This document shows positions 9,628 to 42,944 of a stretch of 42,944 nt of DNA, in pieces. The first letter of the stretch is position 1, and the number at the start of each line of letters is the position of its first letter. The notes beneath the pieces are model-generated. The model saw only the letters and a program-made list of their open reading frames with translations. It had not been told where the DNA came from and made no database searches. The DNA comes from an uncultured Planctomycetaceae bacterium (GTDB lineage: Bacteria > Planctomycetota > Planctomycetia > Planctomycetales > Planctomycetaceae): the NCBI GenBank assembly GCA_964459965.1, contig CAYWOV010000001.1, positions 1-42,944 on the forward strand, written 5' to 3'. The translations under genes and the position numbers were made by a program.

Positions 9628-9954
9628 ATGGGCCTGGTCGATTCGGTGAATTCCGCCATGACGGCGGCGGTCGCAGCGCTGCAAGCCGGTGATTATGCCA
9701 CCGCGCTGCAGCAAGCTCTTTCGGCCCAGGGCCTCTTGGCCCTCATTCCCCGCACGTCCCATGCCGCGGGCACCGGCGGCGGTTCCCACGGCTTCGAGTA
9801 CTCGCCCCAGGCCATCGGCGACTTCATTAAGAACCTTCGCCTGCAGCAGGGGGCGGCCCTGGGCGTGCAAAGCTCGCCCATCACCATCAGCGAGCCCACG
9901 GTGCTCGATGACGGCGAGCAATTCGCCAACTCCAGTGGCGGCTACGTCCAGTAG
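9628..9954 (+). CDS. gpW-like head-tail joining protein (call is position-based)
   Basis: 108-aa ORF immediately upstream of a lambda-type portal, as in the lambda order A-W-B. Helical N-terminus. Confidence 0.45.
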   Translation: MGLVDSVNSAMTAAVAALQAGDYATALQQALSAQGLLALIPRTSHAAGTGGGSHGFEYSPQAIGDFIKNLRLQQGAALGVQSSPITISEPTVLDDGEQFANSSGGYVQ

Positions 9955-9991
9955 CCGTTTTCCTTCCGGCTTCCGCCCTCCGCCTTTGAAG

Positions 9992-11473
9992 ATGTCCCTC
10001 CGCAGCTTTTTCTCCGGACTGTTCGGCCGCTCCTCGACGCCGCCCGCGCCGCAGGAGGCCGCCGAGGTCATGCGCGGCCGCTGGGGCCGCTGGGACTCCA
10101 AAGACACGGACCGCATGAACCAGGCCCATTGGGCGAAGGTCACGGGTTTGCCTATCAATGCGGAACTCGCCTACGCCAGCAATTGGCTGCGGGCCCAGAG
10201 CGAGTACGAGATTTCTTCCAACCCGGTGATGGAAGGGATCGTCAACAGCTACTGCACCGACGTCGTCGGGCCGGACGGCCCCAGTTACCGCGTCACGAGC
10301 TCCGATCCCGAGTACAACCGCAAACGCGAGAAGATATGGCGCCAGTGGTGGCGGCACGCGGGGGCCAACCGCCAGCTTTCCGGCGTGGAGATCCTCAACG
10401 GCTGGGTCCGCTCGTTGTGGAAGGCGGGCGAGTTTGGGACGCAACTGATCAACGATCCCAACGCGGCCGGGCCGATCAAGGTCCGCCTCCTGCCGGTGCA
10501 CATGCACCGGCTCATGACGCCGCCCGAGTTCCTCGGCGATCCGGCCGTGGCCCTGGGCGTGCGGCGCGACGACAACCGCAACCCGATCGCCTATTACATC
10601 AGCGAGCCCTATATCTTCGGGCCCTTCGAGGTCTACACGGGCGAATTCTACATCGTCCGCTACGAGGATTTCATCCACGGTTTCGAGCAGACGGAAGAGG
10701 ACCAGGTGCGGGGCGTGCCCTGGCTGGCCAGCTCGTTGGACACGGTCGGCCAATTGCGGGACTGGGACAAGTCCATGCTGGACGCGGCCGAGTCGCTCTC
10801 GAAGACCGGCGTGGTTTGGCAGATGGAGGATCCGGGCGCAGCGCCGCAGATCATCCGTGGCTCGACGCCCATGGAACGGGGCCAGCAGACCTTCGGACCG
10901 CCCGGCTATAAGGCGCAACAGCTAAGCCCCACGCAGCCCAGCAGCGATCAGCAGAGTTTTCGCAGCGAGAAAAAGGCGGAGATCGGCCGGGGCCGCTGCA
11001 TCCCGCTGATGTTGATCAACCTCGACAGCAGCAAGCACAACTATTCGTCCGCCCGCTTCGACAATCAGCCCTATTGGCGATCGGTCGCCGGCGTGCAGGG
11101 CTGGCTGGGACGCATCGGCCTGGACCGGATCGAAGCCACCGTGATGCGCGAGGCCGAGCTGGCCGGCGAGCTGGACGAGCCGCCCGAGGATCTGGCCGTG
11201 GCCTGGGGCTGGATCAAGCCGCCCCACGTGGACCCCACCAAGGAGTCTGAGGCCGAGGCCGCCTACATCGAGAACCGCACCGTGCCCTGGTCCGACGCCG
11301 TGATCGCCCACGGCGACGATCCGGACCGCGTCTTGGCCACGCTCAAGCATGACAACGAGCGGATGAAGGAGGCCGGCCTGCCGCCGCTTCCCACCGCCGC
11401 GCCGCTGCCCAAGCCGGGTACCGGCTTCGCCAAGTTCGCCGCTGCCGCCGGCGGACAAGCCACGGGAGATTGA
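9992..11473 (+). CDS. Portal protein (lambda family)
   Basis: ATG at 9992. The upstream part of track ORF 9689.. is Pro/Arg-rich junk plus a family-C repeat. The region NQAHWAKV...NWLRAQSEYEISSNPVMEGIVNSYCTDVVGPDG is typical of lambda gpB-type portals. Confidence 0.8.
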   Translation: MSLRSFFSGLFGRSSTPPAPQEAAEVMRGRWGRWDSKDTDRMNQAHWAKVTGLPINAELAYASNWLRAQSEYEISSNPVMEGIVNSYCTDVVGPDGPSYRVTSSDPEYNRKREKIWRQWWRHAGANRQLSGVEILNGWVRSLWKAGEFGTQLINDPNAAGPIKVRLLPVHMHRLMTPPEFLGDPAVALGVRRDDNRNPIAYYISEPYIFGPFEVYTGEFYIVRYEDFIHGFEQTEEDQVRGVPWLASSLDTVGQLRDWDKSMLDAAESLSKTGVVWQMEDPGAAPQIIRGSTPMERGQQTFGPPGYKAQQLSPTQPSSDQQSFRSEKKAEIGRGRCIPLMLINLDSSKHNYSSARFDNQPYWRSVAGVQGWLGRIGLDRIEATVMREAELAGELDEPPEDLAVAWGWIKPPHVDPTKESEAEAAYIENRTVPWSDAVIAHGDDPDRVLATLKHDNERMKEAGLPPLPTAAPLPKPGTGFAKFAAAAGGQATGD

Positions 11474-19230: not shown

Positions 19231-19381
19231 GAGACTCACGCAAAGGCGCAGAGGCGCGAAGGAGGAAGAATAGGAGCCGGACTTAAATGGCCTGGGTTGG
19301 CGCGGGCTGACTGCCCGCGAATTCCCCTCCCTCTTTCTTTGCGCGGTTTGCGCCTTTGCGTGAGACCCGTTTGGTGCGACT

Positions 19382-22351
19382 ATGGGTTCTACCTCTGACA
19401 TCCTTGCCGGCCGGGCGGCCGTCGAGCTGTACCTGAACAAGTCCCTCTTGACGAAGGGTCTCAAGACGGTCTCGGCGGAATTCCGCGCGTTCGGAGCCGG
19501 TTTATCCAGCATTGGAAAAACGTTCATGGCGTTGGGGGCGGGGATCACCGCGCCGCTGTTGCTGGCGGCCCACTCCTGGGCGAGTTCCGGGGCGGAGCTG
19601 GCGAGGATGAGCCAGCGCACGGGGATGGCAGTCGAATCGCTCTCGGCCCTGAAATTCGCGGCCGAGCAGACGGGCACCGGCTTCGACCAGGTGGAAGCGG
19701 GTGTGAAGCGGATGCAGCGCTCGATCATCGAGGCGGCCAAGGGCAGCGACAAGGGTCTTCCTTTTTTGCGCGGCCTGGCGACGCTGGACGCCGACAAGCA
19801 GCTTGCCGCGATCGCCGACAAACTGGCGGGCATTGCCAATCCGGCGGAGAAGGCGGCCGTGGCGATGCAGATCTTCGGCCGCGGCGGCACCGCCATGTTG
19901 CCCATGCTTTCGCGAGGGGCCGCCGGCCTGGCCGAGTGGCGCAAGGAGGCAGAGGACGCCGGCCAGATTCGCAGCAAGGAGCAGGTCCAGGCGGCCTTGC
20001 AACTGTCGATCGCCTGGACGCGCGTGACGGGCTCGCTGATGAGCATGAAGAACACGATCGCCGCGGCCATCGCCCCGCTGCTGACGCGGTTCTTGACCGG
20101 GATGCGGCAGAATGTGCTTACGGCCCGCGATTGGATGAAGTTGCACGGTCCGCTGCTGGTGAACATTTTCAAGATCGGCGCGGCGGCCACGGTTGCCGGC
20201 GCCGCGCTCTATGCCCTGGGAAAGATGGTCGGCGGCATCGGCACGCTCTTCGGCCTGGGGGCGAAGGCGATCATGGGACTCGGTCACGCCGTCACGCTCA
20301 TGCTGATGCCGATCAAGCTCGCGGGCGGTGTGTTTGCGTCACTGCTCTCCGGCGTCTTCTCCCTTATGCAGACCGTCGTTACGGCGGCGGCGGAAGCGAT
20401 CGGCGGCGTCTTCAGCGCGGCGCTTTGGGGGGCCAAAACCGCGGCCGGGGCCGCCACGGCGGGGATCGAATTGTTTGCCTCGGCGGCGATCGGACTCGTC
20501 AAAGGCGGTTTCACCGCGGTCCAGGTCGGCGCCTCGTTGGCCGCCGCTGGCTTCGAGCTTTTCCGCGGCGCCGTGGCACTGACGGCCAAGGGTCTTTCCC
20601 TCGCCGGCGACGTGCTCACTGCCGTGGGATCTGCCATCGCCGCCGGGGCCCGATCCATCAGCGAGTTTTTCGCGATCATAACGGATGGCATCGGTGTCAT
20701 CGGCCTGTTGGTGCGATGCTGGGAAGATCTTCTGGAGACGACGCCCAAAGTAGCCGCAGCACTCGTGAGCGGGGTGGTGGACGGCTTCAAAATGTTTGTC
20801 ACCACCTGTGCCACAGCCGTCACCGCGATCAGAATGACGGTCGATGAAATGGGCGCGCTGGCCACGATCATGTACACGGTCAGCGAGGTTGCCGGCGTGG
20901 CCGGCGACGCCGTTAAGGCCGCGGCTGCCGCGGCTCTGTCGGCAGCCAATCTGGGCGTGATTTTCACGTCGCTCGGCGCCGCGCTGGCGGCGGCCTTGCC
21001 CGCATTGGTACTGATCCTTCCCGCCATTTTGCTCATCCGCTCGGCCCTGGGAGCGGCGGTGAACGGGCTGCATTCGGCGGCTGTTGCCGCTGGCGCGGCG
21101 GCCAAGGCCGGCTTCTCCACGGCCGCCGCCGCCGCCAAACGGGCCTATGGCGACATCGTCTCCAGCGTCCGCGCCGCAACGCCCGCGATCAGCGGCGGCA
21201 TGCAGTCTTGGGAGCAGAGCCTGAAGTCCTTTGCCCTCAGCGTCGGCAGCGTCACCCGCCAGGTGTTTGCGAAGCTCTGGGGCGACGTGAAGGCCGGCTT
21301 TGCCCACCTGGTGGCCGACGTGGGCGGCTCCTGGGATCTTTTGCAAGCGCTCTTGAGCGGCGGCAAATTCGGCGAGGCCTTCGCCTTGGGCCTGGCGGTG
21401 ATGAAGGTCGAATGGGTCCGCTTCAAAAACTACCTCTTAGATAGCTGGCAGACGCTTAAGCCGGGATTCGACGCGATGGTGACCAACGTGGCCGCGGGCA
21501 TCGGCATGGCGGCCGCCACGCTGGCGGACATTTTCGCCGGCCTGAAAATCGCTTGGGGCGACGTGTTCGACGCGGCCCTGGGAGGCCTGCGCAAGTTTCT
21601 CGATTTGCTGGACAGTGCGATCGCCACACTCAAGGAGTGGGGCGCCAAGGTCCAGGCCGCCACGGGCAACGATCCCGTCGCAGCCTTTGAGGAAGCGCAA
21701 CGTCTACGGGCGCAGATCGCGAAGAATCGCAAGGAGGGCCACAAGGGCAGCATCGAAGGGATGCAGTACGTCGACAACGAGGAGCTTGAGGAGCGGGCCC
21801 AAGCGCAGCTTGCCATCTACAACGCGAACAAGTGGACTTCCGGCGCCAGCGCCCCCCTGTCGTCAATGCTTCCCGGCGCCCGCACGCCCGCGCAGAAAGC
21901 GGCCGATGACAAGGCGGCCCGCGATGCGGCGAAGACAGCCGGCGATCAGGCCAAGGGGATCGCGGCGTCGATCGGCAATGCGATCAAATCGGGCACCGTT
22001 TTGCCCGGCGGCGATCCGGCCGAACTTGCCCGGGCGCAAGCCGAGCAGAAGGACGCGCAGAAGGCGGCGGCGGCGGCCGCGGCGGATATTGCTCGCAAGC
22101 AGAAAGAGCAGCGCGATAAGATGCTCGCCGGCGCCGGCGGGCCCGAAGGTCTGGGCCTCGCCATGACGCTGGGCTCCAACGCCTCCCGCGGCACCTTCAG
22201 CGCCTCGGCCGTGTCCGGCCTGGGCATGGGCGGCGGCCTGCTCTCCGAAACGCGCAAGGTGGCGGCGCATACGGCCAGAACGGCGGAGGCCACGGCGGAA
22301 GTCAACCGGGCCGTGTACGCCCTGACCGGCGCGCTGAAGATGGCCAACTGA
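19382..22351 (+). CDS. Tail tape measure protein
   Basis: 989 aa, Ala/Gly-rich with long hydrophobic helices. N-terminal core AELARMSQRTGMAVESLSALKFAAEQTGTGFDQVEAGVKRMQ. Confidence 0.9.
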   Translation: MGSTSDILAGRAAVELYLNKSLLTKGLKTVSAEFRAFGAGLSSIGKTFMALGAGITAPLLLAAHSWASSGAELARMSQRTGMAVESLSALKFAAEQTGTGFDQVEAGVKRMQRSIIEAAKGSDKGLPFLRGLATLDADKQLAAIADKLAGIANPAEKAAVAMQIFGRGGTAMLPMLSRGAAGLAEWRKEAEDAGQIRSKEQVQAALQLSIAWTRVTGSLMSMKNTIAAAIAPLLTRFLTGMRQNVLTARDWMKLHGPLLVNIFKIGAAATVAGAALYALGKMVGGIGTLFGLGAKAIMGLGHAVTLMLMPIKLAGGVFASLLSGVFSLMQTVVTAAAEAIGGVFSAALWGAKTAAGAATAGIELFASAAIGLVKGGFTAVQVGASLAAAGFELFRGAVALTAKGLSLAGDVLTAVGSAIAAGARSISEFFAIITDGIGVIGLLVRCWEDLLETTPKVAAALVSGVVDGFKMFVTTCATAVTAIRMTVDEMGALATIMYTVSEVAGVAGDAVKAAAAAALSAANLGVIFTSLGAALAAALPALVLILPAILLIRSALGAAVNGLHSAAVAAGAAAKAGFSTAAAAAKRAYGDIVSSVRAATPAISGGMQSWEQSLKSFALSVGSVTRQVFAKLWGDVKAGFAHLVADVGGSWDLLQALLSGGKFGEAFALGLAVMKVEWVRFKNYLLDSWQTLKPGFDAMVTNVAAGIGMAAATLADIFAGLKIAWGDVFDAALGGLRKFLDLLDSAIATLKEWGAKVQAATGNDPVAAFEEAQRLRAQIAKNRKEGHKGSIEGMQYVDNEELEERAQAQLAIYNANKWTSGASAPLSSMLPGARTPAQKAADDKAARDAAKTAGDQAKGIAASIGNAIKSGTVLPGGDPAELARAQAEQKDAQKAAAAAAADIARKQKEQRDKMLAGAGGPEGLGLAMTLGSNASRGTFSASAVSGLGMGGGLLSETRKVAAHTARTAEATAEVNRAVYALTGALKMAN

Positions 22352-25838: not shown

Positions 25839-26393
25839 ATGTTTCGCCCCAATTTTTCGTTGCTAACCTTTGTGTTCCTGGTCGCGGCGATCGCCGCCGG
25901 CCCGTCTTCCCCTGGCCCCCATCCGCCGGCCCCCGGCCCCTGTTCCGCATGCCCGGCCGCTGCCGCCTGGTCGGTTTACTTCTCCCCGGCGGGCGGCTGC
26001 ACGGAGGCCGTCGTCCGCGAGATCGCCGCGGCCAAGAAAACGATCCTGGTGCAGGCCTACAACTTCAGCTCGCCGCCGATCGCCGCGGCGTTGCTGGCGG
26101 CCCACCGCCGCGGCGTCGACGTCCAGGTGATCGAAGACAAGCGGGCCAGCGGCGAAAAGAAGTGCCAGGTGCCCGTGCTCCGCAAGGCGGGCATCAAGGT
26201 GCTGCTCGATGGCGTCCACCCCATCGCCCACAACAAGGTGATGGTCATCGACGCCGCCACGGTGCTGACCGGGAGCTTCAACTGGAGCACCGAGGCCGAG
26301 CGGAACGCGGAGAATCTTTTGGTCATCCGCGACGCGGCCCTGGCCGCCAAGTATGCGGCCAACTGGCAGGCGCACGCCGCGCACTCGAAGTAG
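25839..26393 (+). CDS. Secreted PLD-family nuclease (Nuc-like)
   Basis: N-terminal signal/anchor FSLLTFVFLVAAIAA. HKD motif HNKVMVID followed by GSFNWS. Collinear by eye with plasmid-type Nuc endonucleases. Confidence 0.85.
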   Translation: MFRPNFSLLTFVFLVAAIAAGPSSPGPHPPAPGPCSACPAAAAWSVYFSPAGGCTEAVVREIAAAKKTILVQAYNFSSPPIAAALLAAHRRGVDVQVIEDKRASGEKKCQVPVLRKAGIKVLLDGVHPIAHNKVMVIDAATVLTGSFNWSTEAERNAENLLVIRDAALAAKYAANWQAHAAHSK

Positions 26394-26681: not shown

Positions 26682-26892
26682 GGGGGGAAAAGGGATTTGG
26701 GGGATTTAGGGATTTAGAGATTCGGCCCAGGGGCTCTTATCGGCGTGGCCCGGGCTGGGAAACGAGCCGGCCGCGGAAAACGGGGCCCCAGGATTGCGCC
26801 TCTTGCGTTTCGAGCCGTCCGTCCGATGCCCGGGGCCTGGCCGCTTGCAACGCGACAGCGTCGAAGCTACGCTATGGAGAGTGCCGCGACTT

Positions 26893-26941
26893 GCGGACTG
26901 TCGATCCGAAGGTTGCGGGTTCGATTCCCGTCGTCCTCGCC
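26893..26941 (+). other. tRNA-Asp(GTC)-like 3' half (anticodon loop to acceptor end); candidate attP core
   Basis: T-arm GCGGG-TTCGATT-CCCGT, 3' acceptor strand CGTCCTC + G + CC, variable AGGTT and anticodon loop CTGTCGA. No complementary 5' acceptor strand or D-arm is found upstream. Confidence 0.5.
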
Positions 26942-27025
26942 TTGTTTTCCCCAGAAACGGGGGGTGGACTAGACGGGCTCTTTTTTGCGCCCCCTCGTCC
27001 ATCCCCACCCATGGAGGGTGAGACG

Positions 27026-28628: not shown

Positions 28629-29075
28629 ATGGATTCTACCGCGAAAAACGGCCGCGTCAAGGCGGAAGCGCCCGTCCGGCGCCGTGTCTACCAATACTCG
28701 CGCCGCCGTGTCTACCAATACTCGCGCCTGCTCACGCTCAGCGTCGGCCGCGACCTCGACCACCGCTTCCATTGCTGGTTAAGCGAGTACGGCCGCTACG
28801 ATCGGCTCTTTTTCAGCGAGGCCCTGCCGCCAAGAAAGACCTTCGCCGAGGCGGAGGCCGACCTGGAACGCTTCGCCCGCGCCAAGGGCCTGGTGCAGAT
28901 CGCCGATGAGCAGGTGTGCCGCGTCTGCGGCTGCACGCATGAATCGGCCTTCTGCGAGGAGACCGGCGAGCCGTGCCACTGGATCGAGGAGGACCTGTGC
29001 AGCGCGTGCGTGGGCAAAGCGGAAGATTCACCACGGAGCCACGGAGAGCACGGAGGGGGAAAGGGCCATGGGTGA
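28629..29075 (+). CDS. Cys-rich protein (CxxCGC...C...C...CxxC)
   Basis: Motif CRVCGCTHESAFCEETGEPCHWIEEDLCSAC. It contains a 24-bp tandem duplication, and its tail is a family-B repeat. Confidence 0.55.
   Translation: MDSTAKNGRVKAEAPVRRRVYQYSRRRVYQYSRLLTLSVGRDLDHRFHCWLSEYGRYDRLFFSEALPPRKTFAEAEADLERFARAKGLVQIADEQVCRVCGCTHESAFCEETGEPCHWIEEDLCSACVGKAEDSPRSHGEHGGGKGHG
28680..28727 (+). repeat. Two perfect tandem copies of the 24-bp unit CGCCGTGTCTACCAATACTCGCGC
   Basis: Read directly. Encodes RRVYQYSR twice. Confidence 0.9.
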
Positions 29076-29838
29076 GCATACGGGCATCGCCTGGTGCGAC
29101 GCGACGTTCAATCCCTGGTGGGGCTTGTGGGGACCGCAAGGCCCGCGGCGGTTCTTTGACGATGAGCATTGGCGCGAGCCACTGCGATGGAACATCTCGT
29201 CGCGCAAGCTGGGTCAACGCCGGCGGGTTTTTTGCGGCTCGATGTGCGATGTCTTTGAGGATCGCGAGGACGTGGCCGAGCCGCGCTCCCGCCTGGCGTC
29301 GCTCGTCGACCAGACGCCCTTTCTCGACTGGCTGCTCCTGACGAAGCGCCCCGAGAACGTGATGCGGCTCTGGGACCGGGCCGCCACGGACTGGGGCGAG
29401 CCGGGCAGCCTGGCTCTGCCGCTGCGGAATATCTGGATGGGCATCACCGGGGAGGAGCAGCGGTTTCTCGACGAGCGGCATGGCCACCTGGCCGGAATCG
29501 CGGCGCTGAAAAGCTTCTGGTCGCTGGAACCGCTCTTGGGGCCGATCGACTGCGAGCGGGCCTGGCGCAATTCGAGGATTCCCGACTGGCTGATCATCGG
29601 CTGTGAAAGGTTACCGGGCAACGGCGCCGGGCGGAGGTGCGCGTTTTGGTGGGTCAGAGACCTCGTCGCTCAGGCGCGGGCCGCCGGCGTACCTGTCTTC
29701 GTCAAGCAGTTGGCGATCGAGGGCCGCGTGTCGGCCGATCCGGACGACTGGCCGGAGGACCTGCGGATTCAGGAGTTTCCCCTTTGCGCCTCTGCGCCTT
29801 TGCGTGAGACCCCTGTTCCGCCGGAGGCGTCGGCATGA
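29068..29838 (+). CDS. Phage Gp37/Gp68 (DUF5131)-like protein lacking the N-terminal Cys cluster
   Basis: Motifs TGIAWCDATFNPWWG, RRVFCGSMCDVFED, WLLLTKRPENV and VPVFVKQL. The usual GC..S.GC.nCYA segment after NP..G is absent. Confidence 0.65.
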   Translation: MGEHTGIAWCDATFNPWWGLWGPQGPRRFFDDEHWREPLRWNISSRKLGQRRRVFCGSMCDVFEDREDVAEPRSRLASLVDQTPFLDWLLLTKRPENVMRLWDRAATDWGEPGSLALPLRNIWMGITGEEQRFLDERHGHLAGIAALKSFWSLEPLLGPIDCERAWRNSRIPDWLIIGCERLPGNGAGRRCAFWWVRDLVAQARAAGVPVFVKQLAIEGRVSADPDDWPEDLRIQEFPLCASAPLRETPVPPEASA

Positions 29839-29890
29839 TGGGCGAGAGGAGGGGATTTAGGGGAGAGGGATTTGGGGATTTTGGCAGCGT

Positions 29891-29919
29891 CGAGCTTCGG
29901 ACTATATGTCCGAAGCTCG
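29891..29919. promoter_or_regulatory. Perfect 29-bp palindrome CGAGCTTCGGAC-TATAT-GTCCGAAGCTCG
   Basis: Read directly: 12-bp arms around a central TATAT. Confidence 0.8.
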
Positions 29920-30050
29920 GCGGTACCCGCCCGCTTGCAATATGGAAGAGGGGCCCGCGGCGGAGGGCGGAAGGCACAGGGTCGTCCCCCCGACGATCCG
30001 ACGATTGCCGACGCCTTCCGCCTTCCGCCGCCGGCCCGTTTGCAAAGGCG

Positions 30051-30075
30051 GACGGCGGAGGGCGGAAGGGGGAAG
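30051..30075 (+). repeat. Dispersed repeat family C (representative copy); consensus GGCGGAGGGCGGAAGGGGGAAGG
   Basis: Forward copies: 8584-8613, 17664-17696, 29957-29974, 30051-30075, 30253-30282, 38477-38505. Reverse copies: 8389-8430, 9961-9988, 30014-30031, 30114-30138, 38319-38340. Confidence 0.8.
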
Positions 30076-30540
30076 GAAACGACCAGGCCAGAGAAGAGGC
30101 GGGCCTCTCCGGACTTCCCCCTTCCGCCTTCCGCCGTCCCCCTTATTTCCGATCTCCGCTCCGCCGCTCGGCGGCAACGTGGCATGTGGTTGTCTCTCCT
30201 TACCACGGGACATGGTGCGGCGTCGTCGAGCGGCGCAGCGGGGATCGGGGGGCGGCGCGGAGGGCGGATCGTGGAGGGCGGCCGGGAGAGTCGCCGCGGG
30301 ACAGCCGGGCCATCACCTGCCCGGTCCTGCGGATGGTACGAAAACCGGCCGCCTTCCACCGTCGGCCCTCGCGTGGGCGCCCTGGTGGGGTTTGAACGAC
30401 TGCACATCGTGAAAACTGCTTTTTGCAAAATGGAAGACGGAAGGGAGGCGCGTGGAAGTTCGGGCGACGTGCCCGGGCCGCGTCTCTCGCGGGTGGCGTG
30501 ACGGTGGGAGCGGGGCGCCCACGCGCGGGCTGAGCCGACA

Positions 30541-30587
30541 GGGATTTGGAGAGCAGGGATTTAGGGACCGGGGATTTAGGGATTTGG
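30541..30587 (+). repeat. Dispersed repeat family D (representative copy); unit GGGATTT(A/G), reverse form CCCCAAATCCCTAAATCCC / CCAATCCCCAATCC
   Basis: Forward copies: 26393-26416, 26691-26728, 29851-29884, 30541-30587, 39981-40016, 42303-42330. Reverse copies: 30593-30620, 30757-30783, 34101-34140, 35776-35800, 40034-40068, 41161-41192. Confidence 0.8.
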
Positions 30588-30831
30588 CGTCTCGAAATCC
30601 CGTAATCCCAAAATCCCTCGTCTAACTACACTGGAGCAATAGCGGTGGATTGCCCTTCGGCACGGACGAGCTTCACACTACGCAACGGCACTTGGGCCGG
30701 GGCCGTCCGCCATCACGTAAGGACTCTGCACCATGCACGACCTGTTCTTGCCCGCTCGAAATCCCCAAATCCCCAAATCCCTGCCGTCCCCCATCACCAC
30801 TCCCGCCTCGGCCTGGCCCGACGCCGGCGAG

Positions 30832-31920
30832 ATGCTTTTCAGCGAGGCGGTGGAGGCCTGGTTTGCAAGCCGATCGCACCTCAGTCAGAAGACGCTCGAT
30901 GGAAATCGCTCCGTGGCCTGGTCCATATTCCGCTTCGTGCGGGCGAACCTCTCGCTCTACGCGCTGCGCAAGCTGCATCCCACGCTGGCCGCCGAGTGGT
31001 TGCAATGGCTACAGGCCAATCCGCCCACACAGGCCAAGGCCTGGTCGTTGCCCAGGGACTTTTCGCGGGAGAGCGTGGCGCTGTTCCTCCAGGACTGCGA
31101 CGCGACGCCGGAGATGGCGGGCAAGACGCGGCGGCGGAAATCGACCGTGAATCGCTTTTGGCGGGATGGCGGCAGCCAGCTCTGCAAGTGGCTGGGGCAG
31201 ACGGCCCGACCCACGAAAAAGGACCTGCCGCGGCCGCGGCGGACGCAGCCCTTGGTGCCCACGCTGGAGGAAATCGCCGCCCGCTGGCGGGACATCCTCA
31301 TCGGCGGCCAAGGCGAGGCCACCGCCAGCCAGCGCCGCCGCGTGGTGCTCACGCAGGGCTTTTTATTGCTCACCGGCCTGCGCAAGCAGGAGGGCCTCTT
31401 GGTCGAACAGCGGGGCCTGCAGGACTCGTTCCTCCTGGTGCCCGGCGAGATTACCAAGCCGCGGGTTCCCAAGATGATTTGCATCAATGGGCAGGCCTTG
31501 GGCGTAGCCGCCGCGCTCCGCGGGCAGTTGACCTTCGGATTCGCGGAAGGAAAACGGCATCGGCTGTTGGGCTGGCCCTACACGCCGGGCCACTGGGACC
31601 ACCTGGTGGCCAAGTGCGGACCGGCGGCCTGGAAGAATCAGCAGCAGTCCTTGCGCCAGCGCTGCGCGACCTGGGTGCGCGCCCGCGATCCGGACGCCGA
31701 GCGGGTGCAGCTTGGCCACGGCGGCGGCGACGTGGTGCAGATTCACTACCTGGACAAGCTGCGGGAACTGCCGGCTCTGATGAATCAATTCGTCTTGCCG
31801 GACCTCGACGTACCCGGCTTCGCCTGGCCGGCGCCGATCCAGGCCAGCCACGCCGTGCCCAGGGAGCTTTATGCCGAGTTCGACGAGCTCATGGACGCCT
31901 GCGAGCCGGCGGCGGCCTGA
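30832..31920 (+). CDS. int: Tyrosine recombinase / integrase
   Basis: N-terminal SAM-like FSEAVEAWFASRSHLSQKTLDGNRS. Box I LLLTGLRKQE. QSLRQRCATW occupies the HxxR position (Q replaces H). LGHGGGDVVQIHY provides the catalytic Tyr. I prefer the ATG at 30832, because the upstream codons of track ORF 30733.. are a family-D repeat. Confidence 0.75.
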   Translation: MLFSEAVEAWFASRSHLSQKTLDGNRSVAWSIFRFVRANLSLYALRKLHPTLAAEWLQWLQANPPTQAKAWSLPRDFSRESVALFLQDCDATPEMAGKTRRRKSTVNRFWRDGGSQLCKWLGQTARPTKKDLPRPRRTQPLVPTLEEIAARWRDILIGGQGEATASQRRRVVLTQGFLLLTGLRKQEGLLVEQRGLQDSFLLVPGEITKPRVPKMICINGQALGVAAALRGQLTFGFAEGKRHRLLGWPYTPGHWDHLVAKCGPAAWKNQQQSLRQRCATWVRARDPDAERVQLGHGGGDVVQIHYLDKLRELPALMNQFVLPDLDVPGFAWPAPIQASHAVPRELYAEFDELMDACEPAAA

Positions 31921-32127
31921 AACATGAATACACTCACGCGGAGTCGTGGAGGGCTGCTGGACGCATCCAACGCGGACAAGGAAAACAGCCTTGTGTTTCC
32001 GCGGCTCCGCGTGAGACTTTTTTCTCTCGTGGAGGCGGGCGCAAGATGGCGATCGGACCCTTTGCGTCTTTGCGCCTTTGCGTGAGCCTTTTTTCGACCT
32101 GGTGTTCTTGAAACGAAGGAGCAAGCG

Positions 32128-32373
32128 ATGCTGATCCTGGTACGGAAGGAAAATGAAAAGGTGCTGATGCCCGCGCTGGGCATCACGATCACCGTCTGCC
32201 GCCTCAAGGGCGACAAGGTATGCCTGGGCATCGACGCCCCGCGGGAGGTCGAGATTCAGCGCGAAGAGGTCCTGCAACGGATTCTCTTGGGCCAGATTCT
32301 CCAAGCGCCGCCGGCGATCGCCGCGGACCTGGTGCTACCGCCGGAACCGGCGGGGAGGGTTTTGGCATCATGA
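32128..32373 (+). CDS. csrA: CsrA/RsmA-family RNA-binding translational regulator
   Basis: MLILVRKENEKVLM...ITITVCRLKGDKVCLGIDAPREVEIQREEV is collinear with bacterial CsrA. Strong SD (AAGGAG). Confidence 0.88.
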   Translation: MLILVRKENEKVLMPALGITITVCRLKGDKVCLGIDAPREVEIQREEVLQRILLGQILQAPPAIAADLVLPPEPAGRVLAS

Positions 32374-32615
32374 CGACCGAAACGCTTTTGCGCCTCGGGC
32401 CGCACGATTGGGTCAATCCGGCGGATATCGCCGCCGTGCGGTGGTTCAGCAGCCCGGTCACGGAGCATTGGGAGCTGCGCATCTGGCACCCGGCTGCCTG
32501 GCCGGCGATGTATTTCGTCGTCGCCCGGGACTGCGAATTGGACGTGGTGAAGGCCCTGGGCATCGAGCCGCGGCCGCCGATCGAGCGCGCGGAAGCGGCG
32601 GAGAAAGTCGATTAG
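32370..32615 (+). CDS. Small protein translationally coupled to csrA (unknown function)
   Basis: ATGA overlap with the csrA stop. 81 aa, Trp-rich, ordinary composition. Confidence 0.55.
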   Translation: MTTETLLRLGPHDWVNPADIAAVRWFSSPVTEHWELRIWHPAAWPAMYFVVARDCELDVVKALGIEPRPPIERAEAAEKVD

Positions 32616-32663
32616 GCGCGGCGGCGCGGCCGCGCGGAAGACAACGAACGAAGGGATTCAACC

Positions 32664-34166
32664 ATGGAAAAGGAGCGGCCCTACCCCGTCGCCGAACTGC
32701 TGGCGATCGCCGAGGGAGAGCACGCCGAGCGCGTGGCGACGCTGGAAAACCTCCGCAACGTGACCGAGGTGCGGAAGAGCTACACCGCGGTGCTCCTCTG
32801 GCTGCACGGCCGCGGGGCGATCTCGCGCGACGTGGCGGCCGACTGGCGGGAGATCGGCGCCTCCTCCGCGGTGCGGCTGGGACAGCGGACGGTGCAGGAG
32901 GCGGTCAAGTTCTGGCGCCGCCTGGGCATCTTGAAAACGACCGCGCGGTATGATAACAACGGATCGTTGATCGCTCCGCTCGCACGACTGGACTGGGGGG
33001 CCGTCCTCGCGGTCATGACGGGCCGGCCGAATGCCGCCGTGCACGAGGCCCCCAGGGCGGAGCGGGTGGCCGAGGCGGAGGGCCGGCATTTCCTTGCCGG
33101 CCCTCCGCATTCTGACCCTTCTCCGGAGAACCCTGGGGCAGAGTCCATTGCCCGCGGAGAGCAGTTTACCGCAGCCACGCAAAGCGCCCAAGGGCAAGCC
33201 GGAAAGGCCCTCTCCACTTCCGGGGGTCCTAGCGCACGGAGGCATACCGACAACGGGGGTCCTAGCGCACCGTGCGCTACCCCTAGCGCACCGTGCGCTA
33301 CCCCTAGCGCACGGTGCGCTAGGGTCCTTACCGCCGACGGGGGTCCTAGCGCACGCGAGCCGCTTCGCCATGGAGCGTACGCGCGGCGTGACTGGCAACG
33401 CGTGCACGCCTGCGCGCACGGTCTTTCCGTCTCCGTATCCGATTCCGTCGTCGACGACGGAGGCGTGCGCCGCGAGGCGCCGCCGGCCGCGGTGCGGTCG
33501 CTGATCGGCGAGGCGGCGGCCTTGCTGGGCATGAATCCGCCGGGCGAAAAAATGCACCGGCTGCTCTCGGCCGCCGCCCTGGCTGCGCTCTGGTTTTGGG
33601 GCCGCGATTGGTTGCTCATCTCGGCGCGAATCATGGGCGAGGACATGAAGGAAGGCAGGGTGAGGAGGCCCACGGGCCTGCTGCCCTGCATCCTGGCCGA
33701 GCAGGCCGTGGCCGTAGGCGGCATGCAAACCATCGATGATCCGGGCGTCCGCCTCTCGCGCTACAACGCGATCATGAGTCCCATCGAGCGCTTCGCCGCG
33801 CGCAGATACCCGCCGCCGGCGGCGCCGCCGCAGCAGCCGCCCGCGGCCGCCGCGGCGCGATCGCGCTACGAGGTCTCCGCGGACGAGCGGGCGGCGCGAC
33901 AGCGCGAAGAGCGGGGAATCATCGCCGCGGCGCGCAATGCGCTCAAGGCCGCGCCCTCCCCTGCCCCGGGGCAGGGCGAAAGCGGGGACCAAGAAAAACC
34001 CCTAGAATTCGCGGGGGAAATGCAGAAGGGGGGCGCGGAACGACAAGGCGAAAGCGAGCAGGGGGAGGGGGATTTCGGGACGGGAGACGGGGAAACGACC
34101 GATCCCCAAATCCCTAAATCCCCCGTCTCTAAATCCCTCGTTTCCGCCGCCGCGCGGCCGCCGTAA
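32664..34166 (+). CDS. Replication initiator-like protein (N-terminal winged-helix) containing the putative origin
   Basis: N-terminus ...VLLWLHGRGAISRDVAADWREIGASSAVRLGQRTVQEAVKFWRRLGIL looks like wHTH. An iteron/palindrome cluster is embedded mid-gene, as in lambda O. The C-terminal tail is a family-D repeat. Confidence 0.5.
   Translation: MEKERPYPVAELLAIAEGEHAERVATLENLRNVTEVRKSYTAVLLWLHGRGAISRDVAADWREIGASSAVRLGQRTVQEAVKFWRRLGILKTTARYDNNGSLIAPLARLDWGAVLAVMTGRPNAAVHEAPRAERVAEAEGRHFLAGPPHSDPSPENPGAESIARGEQFTAATQSAQGQAGKALSTSGGPSARRHTDNGGPSAPCATPSAPCATPSARCARVLTADGGPSAREPLRHGAYARRDWQRVHACAHGLSVSVSDSVVDDGGVRREAPPAAVRSLIGEAAALLGMNPPGEKMHRLLSAAALAALWFWGRDWLLISARIMGEDMKEGRVRRPTGLLPCILAEQAVAVGGMQTIDDPGVRLSRYNAIMSPIERFAARRYPPPAAPPQQPPAAAAARSRYEVSADERAARQREERGIIAAARNALKAAPSPAPGQGESGDQEKPLEFAGEMQKGGAERQGESEQGEGDFGTGDGETTDPQIPKSPVSKSLVSAAARPP
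33222..33354. promoter_or_regulatory. Putative origin of replication: iterons plus palindromes
   Basis: GGGGGTCCTAGCGCAC occurs at 33222, 33255 and 33339. TAGCGCAC(C/G)GTGCGCTA palindromes occur at 33263-33279, 33284-33300 and 33305-33321 (21-bp phasing). Confidence 0.55.
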
Positions 34167-34321
34167 CGTGCGAACTTGTGTCCCGAGCCGCCTGCTCGTC
34201 GCAAGGCGGCTCCGGCCGGACCGGCGCTTTGGCACAGTTCACTTGGCAGAGGACGGGCCGGCGCCGGCCCCGGCCGGGTTTTTCAAATTCCCGTGGCGAT
34301 TCGAGGAGGGAGGAAGGAAAA

Positions 34322-35809
34322 GTGGTTACGACAACGAAACGAAGACGCTCTCACGCCAAGGCGCCAAGGCGCAAAGCCAACCAGACGGCGCCGGACAGCA
34401 AGACGAAAGCACCGGCGGCGGATAAAAACCGCTTCGAGCACGATCTCTGGGGGCTCATCGACGGCGCGGAAAAATGGCTGCGGCGGCACCGCGTCCCGCA
34501 ACGAGACTTCGGCCTCTGGACGATGCTGCTGCCGGACGAGGAGTGGCACGTGTCCATCTCGCTGAAGGCGTGGACCGCGAAAGTCGATCGTTGGCTGGAG
34601 GCCTGGCGGAAGGCCGGCTGGCAGCGGGCCCCGGCTGGTCGGGAATACCAGGTCTTCAAGACCGTCGGCGACGTGCCGATGGGCATCCAGTTCGCCGACC
34701 TGGGCAGCGGCGTCTACGCGGTGAGAAAGGGCGACCCGGAGTTTTTCAGCGACACGGATTACATGTCGCTGAGTCAGATCGGTTCCCGGACGACGCCCGC
34801 GGCGGCGGAAAAACTGCTGCTCAAAGAACTCGAGAAATTCCGCCAAAAACGGGCTAAGGTGGAACTGAAGCGCTTGGGCGGTAAGCGCCATCCTCCCCGC
34901 GCCTCTGCGCCTTTGCGTGAGACTCCTTCGGTCAAACCTGGTGCCCCCGGCGGAAACGGCGAGGCCGCCGGCACGGCCATGGTGCTGCGCCAGGACGGCC
35001 CGGACCTGCCGGCGATCGTCTCGCTGGAGGAGGCCGAAACGCTCAAGGAGTGCGAAGAGACGATCCGCCAAAACCTCCATGGCTTTATCGAGGTCGGCCA
35101 GGCCCTGGGGCGGATCCAGCAGGAGCGGCTCTATCGGGGCAAGTACAAGACGTTCGAGGAGTATTGCCGCACGGAGTGGGATTTCGCCCGCGCCTACGCC
35201 TACCGCCTGGTGAGCGCGGCCAGCGTGGTCAAGCGGCTGGAAGTGTCACCAATTGGCGACGGCGGCAAAAGTGGGACGAAGCGCTCCGACCTCCCGGACG
35301 GCCATATCGTGCTGCCGGCGACCGAGTCGCAGGTGCGGCCCCTGACGCGGCTGACCGACCCCAAGCAGCAGATCGCCGCCTGGAAAAAGGTCCTCAAGGC
35401 GGCGCCCCGCGGGGCCGACAACGTGCCGCGGGTGACGGCCGAGATCGTGGAACGGGTGGTGGCCGAGACGATCGGAGAGCCGACGAAGAGGCCGGCGGCA
35501 AACGGGCACGCGGCGATGGAAGAACCTCGCGCGAAGCCGCAAAGCCGCGAAGGAAAAGAGATTCACCACGGAGACACGGAGCGCACGGAGAGGGATCATG
35601 GGCTGCCGCTCTGGAAGCTCGAGGCCGCTACGCTCTTGGCCCTCGACCGCGAGTTGGAAGAGACGGTCAAAACCTATTCGCTCGACGAGCTGGACGAATT
35701 GCTTCTTTTGCTCCGCGACCTGGCCGGCCGCGTGGTGGCATTGCACGCGAAGTGGCGGCAAGGAGGGGCCCGCCGCCAATCCCCAATCCCCAATCCCTCG
35801 GTCCGATGA
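34322..35809 (+). CDS. Multi-domain DNA-binding protein (DUF3102 / ParB-HTH-like central domain)
   Basis: The central segment FIEVGQALGRIQQERLYRGKYKTFEEYCRTEWDFARAYAYRLVSAASVV is typical of phage/plasmid HTH proteins. I suggest the GTG at 34322, after a GGAGGGAGGAAGG stretch. Three repeat elements are read in frame. Confidence 0.5.
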   Translation: MVTTTKRRRSHAKAPRRKANQTAPDSKTKAPAADKNRFEHDLWGLIDGAEKWLRRHRVPQRDFGLWTMLLPDEEWHVSISLKAWTAKVDRWLEAWRKAGWQRAPAGREYQVFKTVGDVPMGIQFADLGSGVYAVRKGDPEFFSDTDYMSLSQIGSRTTPAAAEKLLLKELEKFRQKRAKVELKRLGGKRHPPRASAPLRETPSVKPGAPGGNGEAAGTAMVLRQDGPDLPAIVSLEEAETLKECEETIRQNLHGFIEVGQALGRIQQERLYRGKYKTFEEYCRTEWDFARAYAYRLVSAASVVKRLEVSPIGDGGKSGTKRSDLPDGHIVLPATESQVRPLTRLTDPKQQIAAWKKVLKAAPRGADNVPRVTAEIVERVVAETIGEPTKRPAANGHAAMEEPRAKPQSREGKEIHHGDTERTERDHGLPLWKLEAATLLALDRELEETVKTYSLDELDELLLLLRDLAGRVVALHAKWRQGGARRQSPIPNPSVR

Positions 35810-36768
35810 GCTATCCCGGCGGCAAGGCGATGGAAGGCACCTACCAGCGGATCATCAACCTGATCCCGCCCCACGACGTCTTCGTCGAACCCTTCGCCGG
35901 CTCCGCGGCCATCGCCCGCCTCAAGCGGCCGGCCAGGCGCACGATCCTCATCGATCTCGACCCGCGCGCCACCGACGCTTTACGCGCTGTCGGCAGCCGC
36001 TTGCCGGCAACCACCGGCAGAAACGGCGATCGGGTACCGGCGCAAACGCCGGCGTCGGACCGAGCCTTGCCGCGGCTACCGACGAATACGCAGGTGGTGG
36101 AAGCGGACGGCATCGCCTGGCTCGAATACCAGCCCGACCGCGTCATGTCGAGTTGGTTCGTTTACGCCGATCCGCCCTACCTGCCCGAAACATGCAAGAG
36201 TCGCTGCCCCTACCGATTCGGCATGGGAACGAAAGAGCACCTGCGGCTCCTGGAGGTTCTCAAAGAGCTTCCCTGCCCGGTGATGATCTCGGGCCGCTGG
36301 TCGCGACTCTATGCCGAGCAGCTCGGCGGCTGGGCATCGCACACCTGGTACGCCATGAACCGCGGCGGCTCGACGGGCGAAGAGACGATCTGGATGAACT
36401 ATGCCGAGCCGACGGCCCTGCACGATTACCGCTACCTGGGACGCGACTATCGCCAGCGGGAAAACCTGGCCCGCCGCCGGCGGCGCTGGGTGGCCAGGCT
36501 CCAGCGCATGGACACGCTCCAGCGGCAAATGCTCTTGATGGCCATGCAGGAAGTTTTGCTCGGTCCGCCCCCGGCGGATCCGGCGGTGGAGGCCCATAGC
36601 GGCGGAAACGGCGATGGTCGATCGAGCAACGGCCGAAGCGGCGGTGATGGCCACCATCGGTCGACCAGCGGCGGAAATGGCGAGGGCGGCCGGGCCGGGA
36701 AGAAAAAAGCCCCTCGGCCGAGACCGGCGAAAACGGCGGTAGCCGCGGCAAGGCGGGGGAAACCATGA
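35806..36768 (+). CDS. dam: Dam-family (D12 class) N6-adenine DNA methyltransferase
   Basis: Motifs YPGGK, VFVEPFAGSAA and VYADPPY. ATGA overlap with the upstream ORF. The low-complexity C-terminal tail is family G. Confidence 0.85.
   Translation: MSYPGGKAMEGTYQRIINLIPPHDVFVEPFAGSAAIARLKRPARRTILIDLDPRATDALRAVGSRLPATTGRNGDRVPAQTPASDRALPRLPTNTQVVEADGIAWLEYQPDRVMSSWFVYADPPYLPETCKSRCPYRFGMGTKEHLRLLEVLKELPCPVMISGRWSRLYAEQLGGWASHTWYAMNRGGSTGEETIWMNYAEPTALHDYRYLGRDYRQRENLARRRRRWVARLQRMDTLQRQMLLMAMQEVLLGPPPADPAVEAHSGGNGDGRSSNGRSGGDGHHRSTSGGNGEGGRAGKKKAPRPRPAKTAVAAARRGKP
36597..36689 (+). repeat. Repeat family G; AAGCGGCGGTGAT...CG(A/G)TCGACCAGCG(C/G)CGGAAA(C/T)G
   Basis: Shared between 28186-28233 (tail of ORF 27811..28272) and 36597-36689 (tail of dam). 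Confidence 0.65.
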
Positions 36769-36921: not shown

Positions 36922-37212
36922 ATGGTCAGCGACGATTACATTCGGGGCCTGGCGGCGCGGCTCGATCCGGCGGCACAAGCCGAGTTCGGCGAGATCGAAC
37001 GATTGATCCTCAAGCGGTCCATGATCGCCTGCGGCATGGAAGAATATCCGCCGGTCCGGGGAGATTCAACCGGCGCACGCGCTAGCGGCGACATGGTCTG
37101 CAAAATCTGCCTCCAGACCTATGCCGCGCATCCCATGGACTGGCGGGTGATCGGCTATGGCGACGTGCCCTTCCTAAACGTGCTCTGCAACGGGTCCCGG
37201 GTTAAGTTGTAG
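36922..37212 (+). CDS. Hypothetical protein with CxxC...HP...LCNGSRVKL
   Basis: SD GGAGGGA upstream. 96 aa. Bracketed by inverted family-A copies. Confidence 0.55.
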   Translation: MVSDDYIRGLAARLDPAAQAEFGEIERLILKRSMIACGMEEYPPVRGDSTGARASGDMVCKICLQTYAAHPMDWRVIGYGDVPFLNVLCNGSRVKL

Positions 37213-42341: not shown

Positions 42342-42944
42342 ATGAAACCGAGATGGTCTTGCCTGGCTTTTGGACTTCTTGTGGCGGCCTGGCTGGCCGC
42401 CGGCTGCCGTGAATCCGCAACGCGGCCGCCGCGCCGGCTCGGGGCGGTGGTCACGCCGACCTACCTCGTGCCGGATCGGAATCTTTCCGACGTCCAGAGC
42501 CGTAGCGCCTCGCTGGCCAATCTGGGCGGCGTCAGCTCCGCGACCGTCTCGGGCAGCCTGTCCAGCTACTTCCTTTCGGCCGGCACGCCGGCCTTCGCCA
42601 CCACGGCCACGCTGGCAAACTACCCCACCACGGCCAGCGTGTCGGGGTCCCTTGCAAGCTATTTTCCTTCGTCGGGAACAACGGCCCTTGCGACCACGGC
42701 CAGCCTGTCCAACTATTTTCTTTCGTCCGGCACTCCGGCCTTCGCCACCACGGCCACGCTGGCGAATTATCCCACCACGGCCAGCGTCTCGGGGTCGCTC
42801 AGTAGCTATTTCCTTTCCGCCGGCACAACGGCCTTTGCCACCACGGGAAGCCTCGCCGCTTACGAGCCCATCTCTGCGATGGCCGCCTACGCCACCACGG
42901 CCACGCTGGCAAACTACCCCACCACGGCCAGCGTGTCGGGGTCC
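42342..42944 (+). CDS. Tail fibre / tailspike protein, N-terminal 201 codons (continues at 2..2509; 1018 aa in total if circular)
   Basis: ATG at 42342 with no stop to the window end (not in the supplied ORF track). It is in frame with 2..2509 through the 55-nt overlap. Begins MKPRWSCLAFGLLVAAWLAAGC, then fibre repeats. Confidence 0.7.
   Translation, partial: MKPRWSCLAFGLLVAAWLAAGCRESATRPPRRLGAVVTPTYLVPDRNLSDVQSRSASLANLGGVSSATVSGSLSSYFLSAGTPAFATTATLANYPTTASVSGSLASYFPSSGTTALATTASLSNYFLSSGTPAFATTATLANYPTTASVSGSLSSYFLSAGTTAFATTGSLAAYEPISAMAAYATTATLANYPTTASVSGS
42596..42793 (+). repeat. Copy 1 of the 198-bp perfect direct repeat (copy 2 = 1..198)
   Basis: See the feature at 1..198. Confidence 0.95.
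42890..42944 (+). repeat. 55-nt terminal overlap with window positions 1..55
   Basis: Exact identity read directly. The same 55-mer also occurs at 42596-42650. Confidence 0.95.

Follow-up and report, generated by a model that had tools for sequence, protein, structure and literature searches.

The window analysed here is the whole of contig CAYWOV010000001.1, 42,944 bp at 66% GC, and is a tailed phage with genes nearly all on the + strand. Our subject is a gap of 892 nt in it (29839-30730), which a preliminary description made from the sequence alone had singled out as non-coding, hairpin-dense and rich in GGA triplets. It had suggested a structured RNA, a sponge for the regulator CsrA, extended arms of the phage attachment site (attP), or a replication or packaging element. 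The 5' neighbour of the gap is a DUF5131 gene (28906-29838; 6e-33), and the 3' neighbour is a tyrosine-recombinase gene on the + strand (int, 30733-31920), which PHROGs calls weakly as an integrase; csrA (32128-32373; Pfam CsrA, 3.4e-16) lies further downstream. The gap is thus placed as it had been described, directly 5' of an integrase and about 1.4 kb before csrA. Homologues of int were located on long contigs and their loci were fetched. These relatives are labelled L001-L006, L010, L014-L016 and L018, of which L001 and L018 are the two ends of one provirus.

The gap indeed contains no credible open reading frame (ORF) on either strand. The ORFs that lie in 29839-30732 or cross it all score below zero for codon usage (-0.19 to -0.55), compared with +0.20 to +0.65 for twelve confident genes, and their GC content is flat over the three codon positions (GC1=GC2=GC3, about 0.68), where real genes have a GC3 of 0.78-0.90. 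From about 29650 to 30700 there is no frame with a positive codon-usage score, and tblastx against the relatives found no protein-level conservation within the gap. A hidden gene starting at GTG 30645 was considered and rejected, its coding score being negative and its frame a shadow of int. The minimum free energy of folding has z-scores against shuffled sequences of -10.2 for the + strand and -12.3 for the - strand; strong folding on both strands is the outcome expected from palindromes at the DNA level. All of the inverted repeats listed in the preliminary description are present, some of them longer than given there, and three more (hairpin C, hairpin D and a long-range pair, described below) were absent from its list.

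The first of these repeats is a palindrome at 29891-29919, with no strand assigned, which reads CGAGCTTCGGA-CTATATG-TCCGAAGCTCG. To call it a perfect 29-bp palindrome, as was done before, is a slight overstatement: the arms are perfect (12 + 5 + 12), but the TATAT centre is not self-complementary. The arms GAGCTTCGGA / TCCGAAGCTC are kept, in one copy per phage, in L001-L004 and L006, with the 7-nt centres being CTATATG, TATTACA, CTACCTG, CTACTTG and CTACACA, and symmetric variants are found in L005, L010 and L014. The palindrome is always near int, from 840 bp upstream of it to about 190 nt inside the ORF.

The attP core is at 26894-26943 (+ strand), a 50-bp identity to the 3' part of tRNA-Asp(GTC), from the anticodon stem to the 3' end. 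Locus L001 is a prophage junction, in which a complete tRNA-Asp(GTC) (L001:4888-4963) separates host-type genes from phage genes that are collinear with 26.9-29.0 kb of the window and lead on to int. A partial copy of the tRNA (attR) is found at the other end of the provirus (L018:11066-11115), with a prophage of about 44 kb between the direct repeats, and the tRNA-Asp fragment is present also in L004, L005 and L006. Temperate phages with attachment sites in tRNA genes cross over in the anticodon stem-loop. The site described here is similar, in that the identity block opens with the 5' strand of the anticodon stem and continues to the 3' end of the tRNA, and in that the stem gives inverted half-sites around a 7-nt loop: the anticodon arm in the bacterial site (attB) is GAGCATCGGA-CTGTCGA-TCCGAAGGTT, and the anticodon-arm site in attP is a 27-mer at 26888-26914. 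The difference is that this true site is at 26.9 kb, and the gap holds only a mimic of it. No exact match to the 48-nt tRNA-Asp/att sequence was found among GTDB genomes. Immediately to the left of attP there is a PLD-like (HKD) nuclease-family protein (25839-26393).

The likeness between the palindrome and the attachment site is close. At 17 of 20 arm positions the palindrome agrees with the anticodon arm of attB, and the 7-nt spacing is equal. When the arm pattern was run without bias over 42,917 positions of the window, the best match other than the palindrome itself was a single site, the attP anticodon arm at 26888, with 5 mismatches; every other position has at least 6. The pattern TCGGA-N7-TCCGAAG occurs in the window at the palindrome only (0.02 sites expected by chance), and among the fetched loci it occurs only in att cores and int-linked palindromes. 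The palindrome is therefore best described as an att-core mimic, and is probably two Int core-type half-sites, made symmetric around a spacer unlike that of att, that is, a putative Int-binding site. Its role could be that of an operator, roadblock or decoy for Int, or of a secondary site of the lox/dif kind. Two other candidates were rejected. A telomere-resolvase site does not fit because the length is odd and the centre is not self-complementary, and an RNA mimic of the tRNA anticodon arm does not fit because the loop varies freely among the phages.

In an alignment of the Int family, residues R217, K242, R308, H329 and Y339 are conserved, and an invariant Q305 replaces the first His. The Pfam family PF00589 matches 5 of 14 family members, the protein from the window not being one of them, and a profile search of the PDB with Int gave a match to a XerC-like protein. 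The AlphaFold2 model of Int has a mean predicted local distance difference test score (pLDDT) of 82, with residues 1-30 disordered and the core-binding helices starting from about residue 36. The top Foldseek matches to the model are all tyrosine recombinases (Tn1549 Int, XerA, IntI, lambda Int, XerH and Cre), and the alignments span the core-binding and catalytic domains only. From the alignment and the model we conclude that Int is a divergent two-domain tyrosine recombinase. The model has no arm-binding N-terminal domain. Scanning about 39 of the 47 called genes revealed no other recombinase. In the ENA contigs L002, L003 and L004 the int frames are disrupted by apparent indels, giving frameshifted gene calls (P0004, P0005); these assemblies probably carry homopolymer errors, and frame-based arguments from them are therefore unreliable.

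Simple sites for a tyrosine recombinase, lying beside the recombinase gene, are well known in loxP/Cre of P1, FRT/Flp and dif/XerCD. The palindrome resembles these in having two inverted arms of 10-12 bp that flank an asymmetric 7-bp spacer which is not self-complementary, in being present here as a single copy, and in adjoining a two-domain tyrosine recombinase without an arm-binding domain. Also, the spacer varies between these phages and the arms are kept. The arms correspond to the Int half-sites, although the variants in L005 and L016 fit less well. It differs from these systems in that the recombinase here evidently integrates at another site, in tRNA-Asp, whose half-sites the palindrome mimics with a different centre, and in lying within the int frame in several relatives.

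The remainder of the gap is built largely of short tandem arrays, with about three copies and a period of 7-8 nt. The F1 unit is GGGATTT, of which the window has 26, clustered, against 5.2 expected; the F2 unit is GGCGGA(A/G)GG; and the F3 unit is TTTGCGCC-TCTGCGCC-TTTGCGTGAG. A tri-octamer F3 array, cTTTGCGCC-TCTGCGCC-TTTGCGTGAG, is found on the + strand at 29779-29810 (Tandem Repeats Finder, TRF, gives 29781-29804), where the DUF5131 ORF ends, and likely marks the start of the non-coding DNA. F3 has 17 copies with no more than 3 mismatches across the window, mostly intergenic, and F3 arrays are also present in the relatives and in several unrelated high-GC viral contigs. A G-strand F1 array follows at 29852-29884 (+), with three GGGATTT spaced 15 and 8 nt apart (GGGATTTAGGGGAGAGGGATTTGGGGATTTTGG). 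This unit of about 33 nt recurs at 26692, 30556, 34137(-) and 40068(-), and identical arrays are found in L001-L004. At the other end of the gap are inverted F1 arrays on both strands (30541-30617), with four GGGATTT on the + strand (30541-30585) and then AAATCCC/TAATCCC/AAATCCC (30595-30617); this is the inverted pair that had been assigned to a D family, and it abuts the 5' side of the conserved promoter-like block of int. C-strand F1 arrays also stand before the gene starts at 34178, 40087 and 26681(-), and F2 arrays occur elsewhere in the window at 8.4k, 9.96k, 17.67k and 38.49k, as well as in L001-L005.

Across the window TRF finds 38 short arrays of at least six sequence families, often as inverted pairs. 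Non-coding DNA makes up 17.8% of the window and holds 24 of the 38 (P = 7e-10), and most of the others are at gene ends. The array families recur in the relatives (L001-L005) at other positions with near-identical sequence. They are thus dispersed intergenic repeats, being multi-copy, mostly intergenic and common to related genomes. Dispersed intergenic repeats and hairpins of phages and bacteria include the RNase III sites of T7, the repetitive extragenic palindromic (REP) sequences and bacterial interspersed mosaic elements (BIMEs), and the stoperators and start-associated sequences of mycobacteriophages. The present arrays resemble all of these in being multi-copy and strongly intergenic, in lying often just before gene starts or after gene ends, and in being near-identical among diverged relatives. 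They differ in their build, with 7-8-nt units repeated three times in tandem, six or more sequence families and frequent inverted pairs with loops of 30-300 nt, and no known family matched them. Two other roles for the F1 arrays were dropped: as G-quadruplexes, where the motif fit was by eye only, and as arm sites for Int, since Int lacks a domain for binding arms and F1 is found also at 34.1, 40.0 and 42.3 kb. It may be added that the third F1 array of the int region (30759-30781) encodes codons 9-17 of Int, and that the disordered N-terminal linker of Int is encoded by inserted arrays: F1 here, F2 in L002/L003 and CCCCGGC arrays in L014. Arrays are densest between 25.9 and 42 kb. Examples from the whole window are those at 19239/19337, 36887/37220, 39519/39573, 35776 and 41162, and the gene at 36922-37212 is bracketed exactly by a pair of F3 arrays.

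Many of the arrays in the gap are paired into long hairpins. Hairpin A (29951-30037, +) has 25-nt F2 arms (GGCGGAG-GGCGGAA-GG / CCTTCCG-CCTTCCG-CC) and a 37-nt loop that itself contains a small hairpin; its core stem (29957-29974/30014-30031) is 18 bp with one G.T and extends to 25 nt with 92% complementarity. Hairpin B (30045-30144, +) is a paralogue of A. The stem listed for it previously (30051-30075/30114-30138) extends to arms of 31 nt with 94% complementarity, and is followed by CTTATTTCC, which together make a possible intrinsic terminator with a long stem. In Rfam it has sub-threshold, generic matches resembling microRNA (miRNA) precursors, on both strands. Hairpin C (30149-30248, +) has a stem of about 26 bp, a conserved sequence and a conserved apical CACCACGGGACATG. 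Hairpin D (30260-30370, +) has 26-nt F2-like arms with 85% complementarity. Finally, a long-range inverted pair on the + strand (30362-30382/30513-30533) has 21-nt arms that are 90% complementary, and encloses a less GC-rich patch (by eye, about 30390-30440) containing TTTTTGCAAAATGGAAGACGG.

Of these, hairpin C is the one conserved in sequence. Its alignment (window, L001, L004 and L002/L003) has a compensatory change in 5 of 32 predicted pairs, its covariance model gives 84-136 bits for the + strand and 29-51 for the - strand, and its stem mismatches are G.U in five cases and A.C in one. A weak copy is found in L005, inside a hairpin-dense non-coding block of 680 nt. Over the stems of the gap as a whole, the mismatches on the + strand are G.U in 12 cases and A.C in 2, an excess which hints at selection in + strand RNA. 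The hairpin architecture is kept in L001, L004, L005 and L002/L003 though the families that fill it differ. For example, L004 and the window have the same order of array, palindrome, hairpins, hairpin C, hairpins and leader, with different fillers.

The last 110 nt or so of the gap (30619-30732, +) form an int leader that is conserved in 7 phages. It begins with a promoter-like block, TAnnCT followed by CTGGAG (30627-30636, +). A long-range helix P1 of 11 bp (30644-30656 with 30699-30711, +) then encloses hairpin P2 (30659-30672, +), which has a 3-bp stem and an 8-nt loop, CACGGACG, at 30661-30668. The Shine-Dalgarno sequence AAGGA is at about 30719 (+), its GGA being 57 nt 3' of the loop GGA. 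In an alignment of the seven leaders, 97% of cells are paired and 3 pairs are compensatory, compared with 33-58% paired in slid controls. The covariation score is 0.318 versus 0.208 in shuffles, and none of 500 shuffles reaches it. Several G.U pairs are kept on the + strand, and the P2 stem covaries (GC, CG, UA). Taken with hairpin C and the G.U bias, this bears out the view that the gap is a structured non-coding region.

The motif CAnGGAcG in the P2 loop is invariant in 7/7 leaders, and is found also in L015. It fits the consensus for CsrA/RsmE. Leaders repressed by these proteins, such as those of hcnA and glgC, have one GGA in an upstream hairpin loop and another at the Shine-Dalgarno sequence. 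The int leader is similar, with a loop GGA in a conserved hairpin and a Shine-Dalgarno GGA at bridging distance, and because of this arrangement int is a possible CsrA target, with the CAnGGAcG loop as the candidate contact. It differs from the hcnA/glgC type in that L015 shares the motif although its fetched locus yielded no csrA. Even if bound, such a leader would be a single target site and not a sponge.

Given these results, we propose with moderate confidence that the gap is a composite cis-regulatory spacer heading the int-csrA-replication gene block, with parts that are of known kinds but unusual in detail. Its anatomy and conservation, the mapping of att and the fold of the recombinase are established computationally; from the sequence we infer protein binding, transcription and each regulatory role, as follows. 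The single-copy palindrome, whose two arms of 10-12 bp copy the Int half-sites (the anticodon stem plus flanks in attB/attP), would most likely bind the adjacent Int without recombining with att, its 7-bp centre differing from the att overlap. Bound in this way, it might control int as an operator or roadblock, or else serve as a secondary site of the lox/dif kind. The long hairpins, mostly made from F1/F2 triple arrays and including the sequence-conserved hairpin C, would form in + strand RNA, and the most likely role of the chain of hairpins would be the termination, insulation or processing of transcripts that arrive from the accessory genes upstream. Last, the promoter-proximal block and the structured 5' leader of int would display one CAnGGAcG loop to CsrA, about 57 nt from the Shine-Dalgarno GGA.

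Several observations weigh against this proposal. The inner arm bases of the palindrome in L005 are CGTA and not CGGA, though attP of L005 retains CGGA, and L016, which is beside tRNA-Met, has an int-proximal palindrome unlike that tRNA. The palindrome lies inside the int frame in five relatives, and in L001, L002, L010 and L014 it is in frame within the disordered N-terminal linker of Int; it is therefore possible that it has a role at the RNA level, or has inserted into a tolerant disordered linker. A scan of the gap for sigma-70-type promoters, whose consensus may not be that of the host, found none, and no terminator-like site within the gap was found by scan. An excess of G.U mismatches might follow from the positive GC skew of the + strand alone, and the covariation is based on 5-7 related sequences. 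As for the leader, L015 has CAnGGAcG but no csrA was found in the 8.5-kb locus fetched. Finally, the filler hairpins may be functionless selfish repeats.

A bolder extension of this proposal is that the triple arrays (GGGATTT, GGCGGAR, TTTGCGCC and others) and their hairpins constitute an undescribed, sequence-specific punctuation code of high-GC temperate phages. The gap would be its densest cluster, cooperating with the att-core decoy and the CsrA-type leader hairpin to set the expression of int and csrA, and the code may be read by an unidentified factor or as signals for RNA processing or termination. We put this forward tentatively.

The opposite reading of the arrays is that the gap is a neutral graveyard of selfish palindromic repeats, of the REP type or like miniature inverted-repeat transposable elements (MITEs), with no function beyond the int leader. 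The dispersal of the array families, often as inverted pairs, in many other viral contigs agrees with this, as does the swapping of fillers between phages (F2 here, GGGGCCA-type in L004, CACGGAG and AAGGCGC types in L001) and the in-frame insertion of arrays and palindromes even in the disordered linker of Int. However, a hairpin-dense non-coding block of 0.35-0.9 kb is kept 5' of int in at least 5 phages with Int identities of 45-70%, hairpin C and the leader have compensatory changes, and the G.U bias stands at 12 to 2; moreover, the near-identity of the arrays in otherwise diverged phages argues for constraint at the sequence level. We therefore regard a wholly neutral origin as possible but doubtful.

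The conservation of hairpin C, with its five compensatory pairs and strand-asymmetric model scores, together with the G.U bias in favour of the + strand, could alternatively mean that the gap encodes one or more independent structured RNA genes, for example hairpin C as a small RNA (sRNA) or an antisense immunity RNA. Antisense-type immunity RNAs are known in P4 CI and P1 c4, and the targets here would be the complementary F1 arrays, which bracket the int leader and start codon (30541-30585 versus 30595-30617 and 30759-30781). Yet neither promoter nor terminator signals were found by scan and no Rfam family matches, the alignment has 4 independent sequences only, and in L002/L003 a methylase gene separates hairpin C from int. 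This makes an independent RNA gene unlikely.

We also consider it distinctly improbable that the gap is an origin, a single-strand initiation hairpin or a pac/cos site for the downstream replication genes, which the preliminary description had held to be an equally viable explanation. It does adjoin a block of csrA and genes for proteins of 500 and 543 aa that is syntenic in all relatives, one homologue having a weak DnaA_N match, and both the conserved hairpin C and the less GC-rich patch around 30390-30440 could be accommodated. On the other side, it has no regularly spaced iterons of 17 bp or more, the terminase 25 kb away is of the lambda gpA (cos) type, and there is a better origin candidate in three tandem 21-bp dyad-symmetric iterons (CCTAGCGCACCGTGCGCTACC) at 33261-33321, with half-sites at 33225 and 33340 (33225-33360). 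These are inside the 500-aa gene (32664-34166), a candidate initiator gene, as are the iterons of lambda O, and because of them an origin in the gap is unlikely.

The most attractive of the earlier suggestions was that the gap is transcribed as a GGA-rich RNA which sequesters the CsrA of the phage or host, like CsrB or RsmY/Z. The hand count of about 38 GGA was right, the + strand of the gap having exactly 38, which ranks 3rd of 842 sliding windows of 892 nt (mean 17.5 +/- 6.0). The expectation of 16-17 that went with it agrees with this average, but local composition predicts more: 20.9 by mononucleotides, and 28.2 +/- 3.6 by dinucleotide-preserving shuffles (maximum 37 in 500). The enrichment is thus real yet modest, at about z = 2.7. 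In addition, csrA is 1.4 kb downstream with the int-csrA linkage conserved in the family, the mismatches in the stems hint at an RNA of + strand sequence, and the conserved hairpin loop at 30661-30668 has a perfect CAnGGAnG. The likeness to CsrB/RsmX-Y-Z is in the gap being non-coding and GGA-rich in a genome that encodes a CsrA homologue.

This likeness does not extend further. As many as 23 of the 38 GGA are within 192 nt of G-strand F1/F2 arrays, and the remaining 700 nt of the gap has 2.14 GGA per 100 nt, essentially the genome mean of 1.94; the richness in GGA is therefore a by-product of G-rich repeat units, whose families occur at many other intergenic sites. In CsrB/RsmX-Y-Z the GGA are in the loops of short hairpins, whereas here they are mostly in long stems of dispersed repeats. 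This weakness had been foreseen, and it is real: the mean unpaired probability of the GGA is 0.32 versus 0.30 for the region, and just 10 of 38 exceed 0.5. There is one CAnGGAnG in the 892 nt rather than many, and there are 12 AnGGA. The recommended check against the Rfam models for CsrB/CsrC/RsmX/Y/Z gave no match, either at the gathering score over the whole window or at E <= 10, where the only matches are generic and miRNA-hairpin-like, on both strands and far below thresholds. The terminator scan, and the promoter scan for sigma-70-type sites, a type that may not be that of the host, found nothing to frame an sRNA or give it boundaries. Finally, the relatives that carry csrA have shorter gaps upstream of int (93-693 nt as compared), built from other repeat families, and their GGA density is 2.2-3.4 per 100 nt. 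A CsrA sponge is accordingly very improbable.

The idea of an extended attP, in which the hairpins and repeats would serve as arm-type sites or as sites for accessory factors, can be dismissed, for although the gap is immediately 5' of int and its palindrome resembles the att core, the mapped prophage junctions refute it for this family: the core (the tRNA-Asp identity block, 26894-26943) is 2.9 kb upstream with about five called genes between, the L001/L018 prophage has a whole tRNA-Asp at attL and a partial copy at attR with the gap intact and not at the junction, the palindrome lying about 3 kb inside, the N-terminus of the Int model is disordered with no separate arm-binding domain, and the 7-nt centre of the palindrome is unlike the att overlap CTGTCGA. 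The GGA-rich RNA and attP suggestions thus fail as they were put, but each leaves something behind: the palindrome looks like a mimic of the att core, and the int leader has one conserved hairpin motif of the CsrA type.

What is gained is that the appealing idea of a self-contained CsrA-sponge module in a phage is removed, and the true attachment site is fixed at tRNA-Asp. In its place there are three concrete elements, from a phage lineage with almost no annotation: the mimic of the integrase site beside int, the conserved hairpin, and the conserved, structured leader of int with its one CsrA-type motif. Should the palindrome bind Int, this would be a clear case of a recombinase with a decoy or secondary copy of its core site, for autoregulation or for multimer resolution. 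If the triple arrays are signals, they would provide a new handle on gene expression in high-GC phages.

Between int and csrA, at 32069-32095, there is an F3 array followed by CCTTTTTTCG, which is terminator-like by scan, and int and csrA may therefore not share a transcript. In L016, a distant relative on a 269-kb contig, an uncalled csrA-like ORF (L016:5621-5773) is found just 5' of int, so that the int-csrA linkage reaches beyond the tRNA-Asp subgroup. A different palindrome, with 13-bp arms (5935-5965), lies between this ORF and int, and the tRNA-Met (2573-2647) is 3.4 kb upstream.

As a whole, the phage is temperate, cos-type and siphovirus-like, and integrates into tRNA-Asp. Its large terminase is of the lambda gpA type (4566-6782), its portal belongs to the lambda family (9689-11473), and these are followed by a protease-capsid fusion (11477-14272) and a tape measure protein (19382-22351). 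Searches of Pfam, PHROGs, NCBIfam and PDB sequences gave nothing for the downstream proteins of 500 aa and 543 aa, or for the minus-strand gene at 37.3 kb. A search of IMG/VR with the int protein alone gave no close relative, and among GenBank phages nothing matched 29000-33000 by blastn. An int alignment narrower than the first, whose diversity made it unsuitable for scanning genomes, found no relative in GTDB genomes; it matched a single metagenome contig of 1.5 kb, and in IMG/VR three viral contigs already collected. In the literature nothing relevant was found on phage csrA with integrase, on prophages of Planctomycetes or on the repeat strings.

The ends of the contig carry an exact direct repeat of 55 bp (1-55 and 42890-42944), which indicates that the assembly is circular. 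The repeat sits within a coding region of 147-nt tandem repeats (42550-42944 and 173-265), encoding a repeat protein of the ATTA(T/S)LANY... type, and this region runs on into a tail-like ORF of 821 aa (44-2509). The early region has a Dam-type N6-adenine methyltransferase (35806-36768). Lastly, the related contig L016 has a DUF1580 gene, which we take as a hint that the host is a planctomycete (Planctomycetota).

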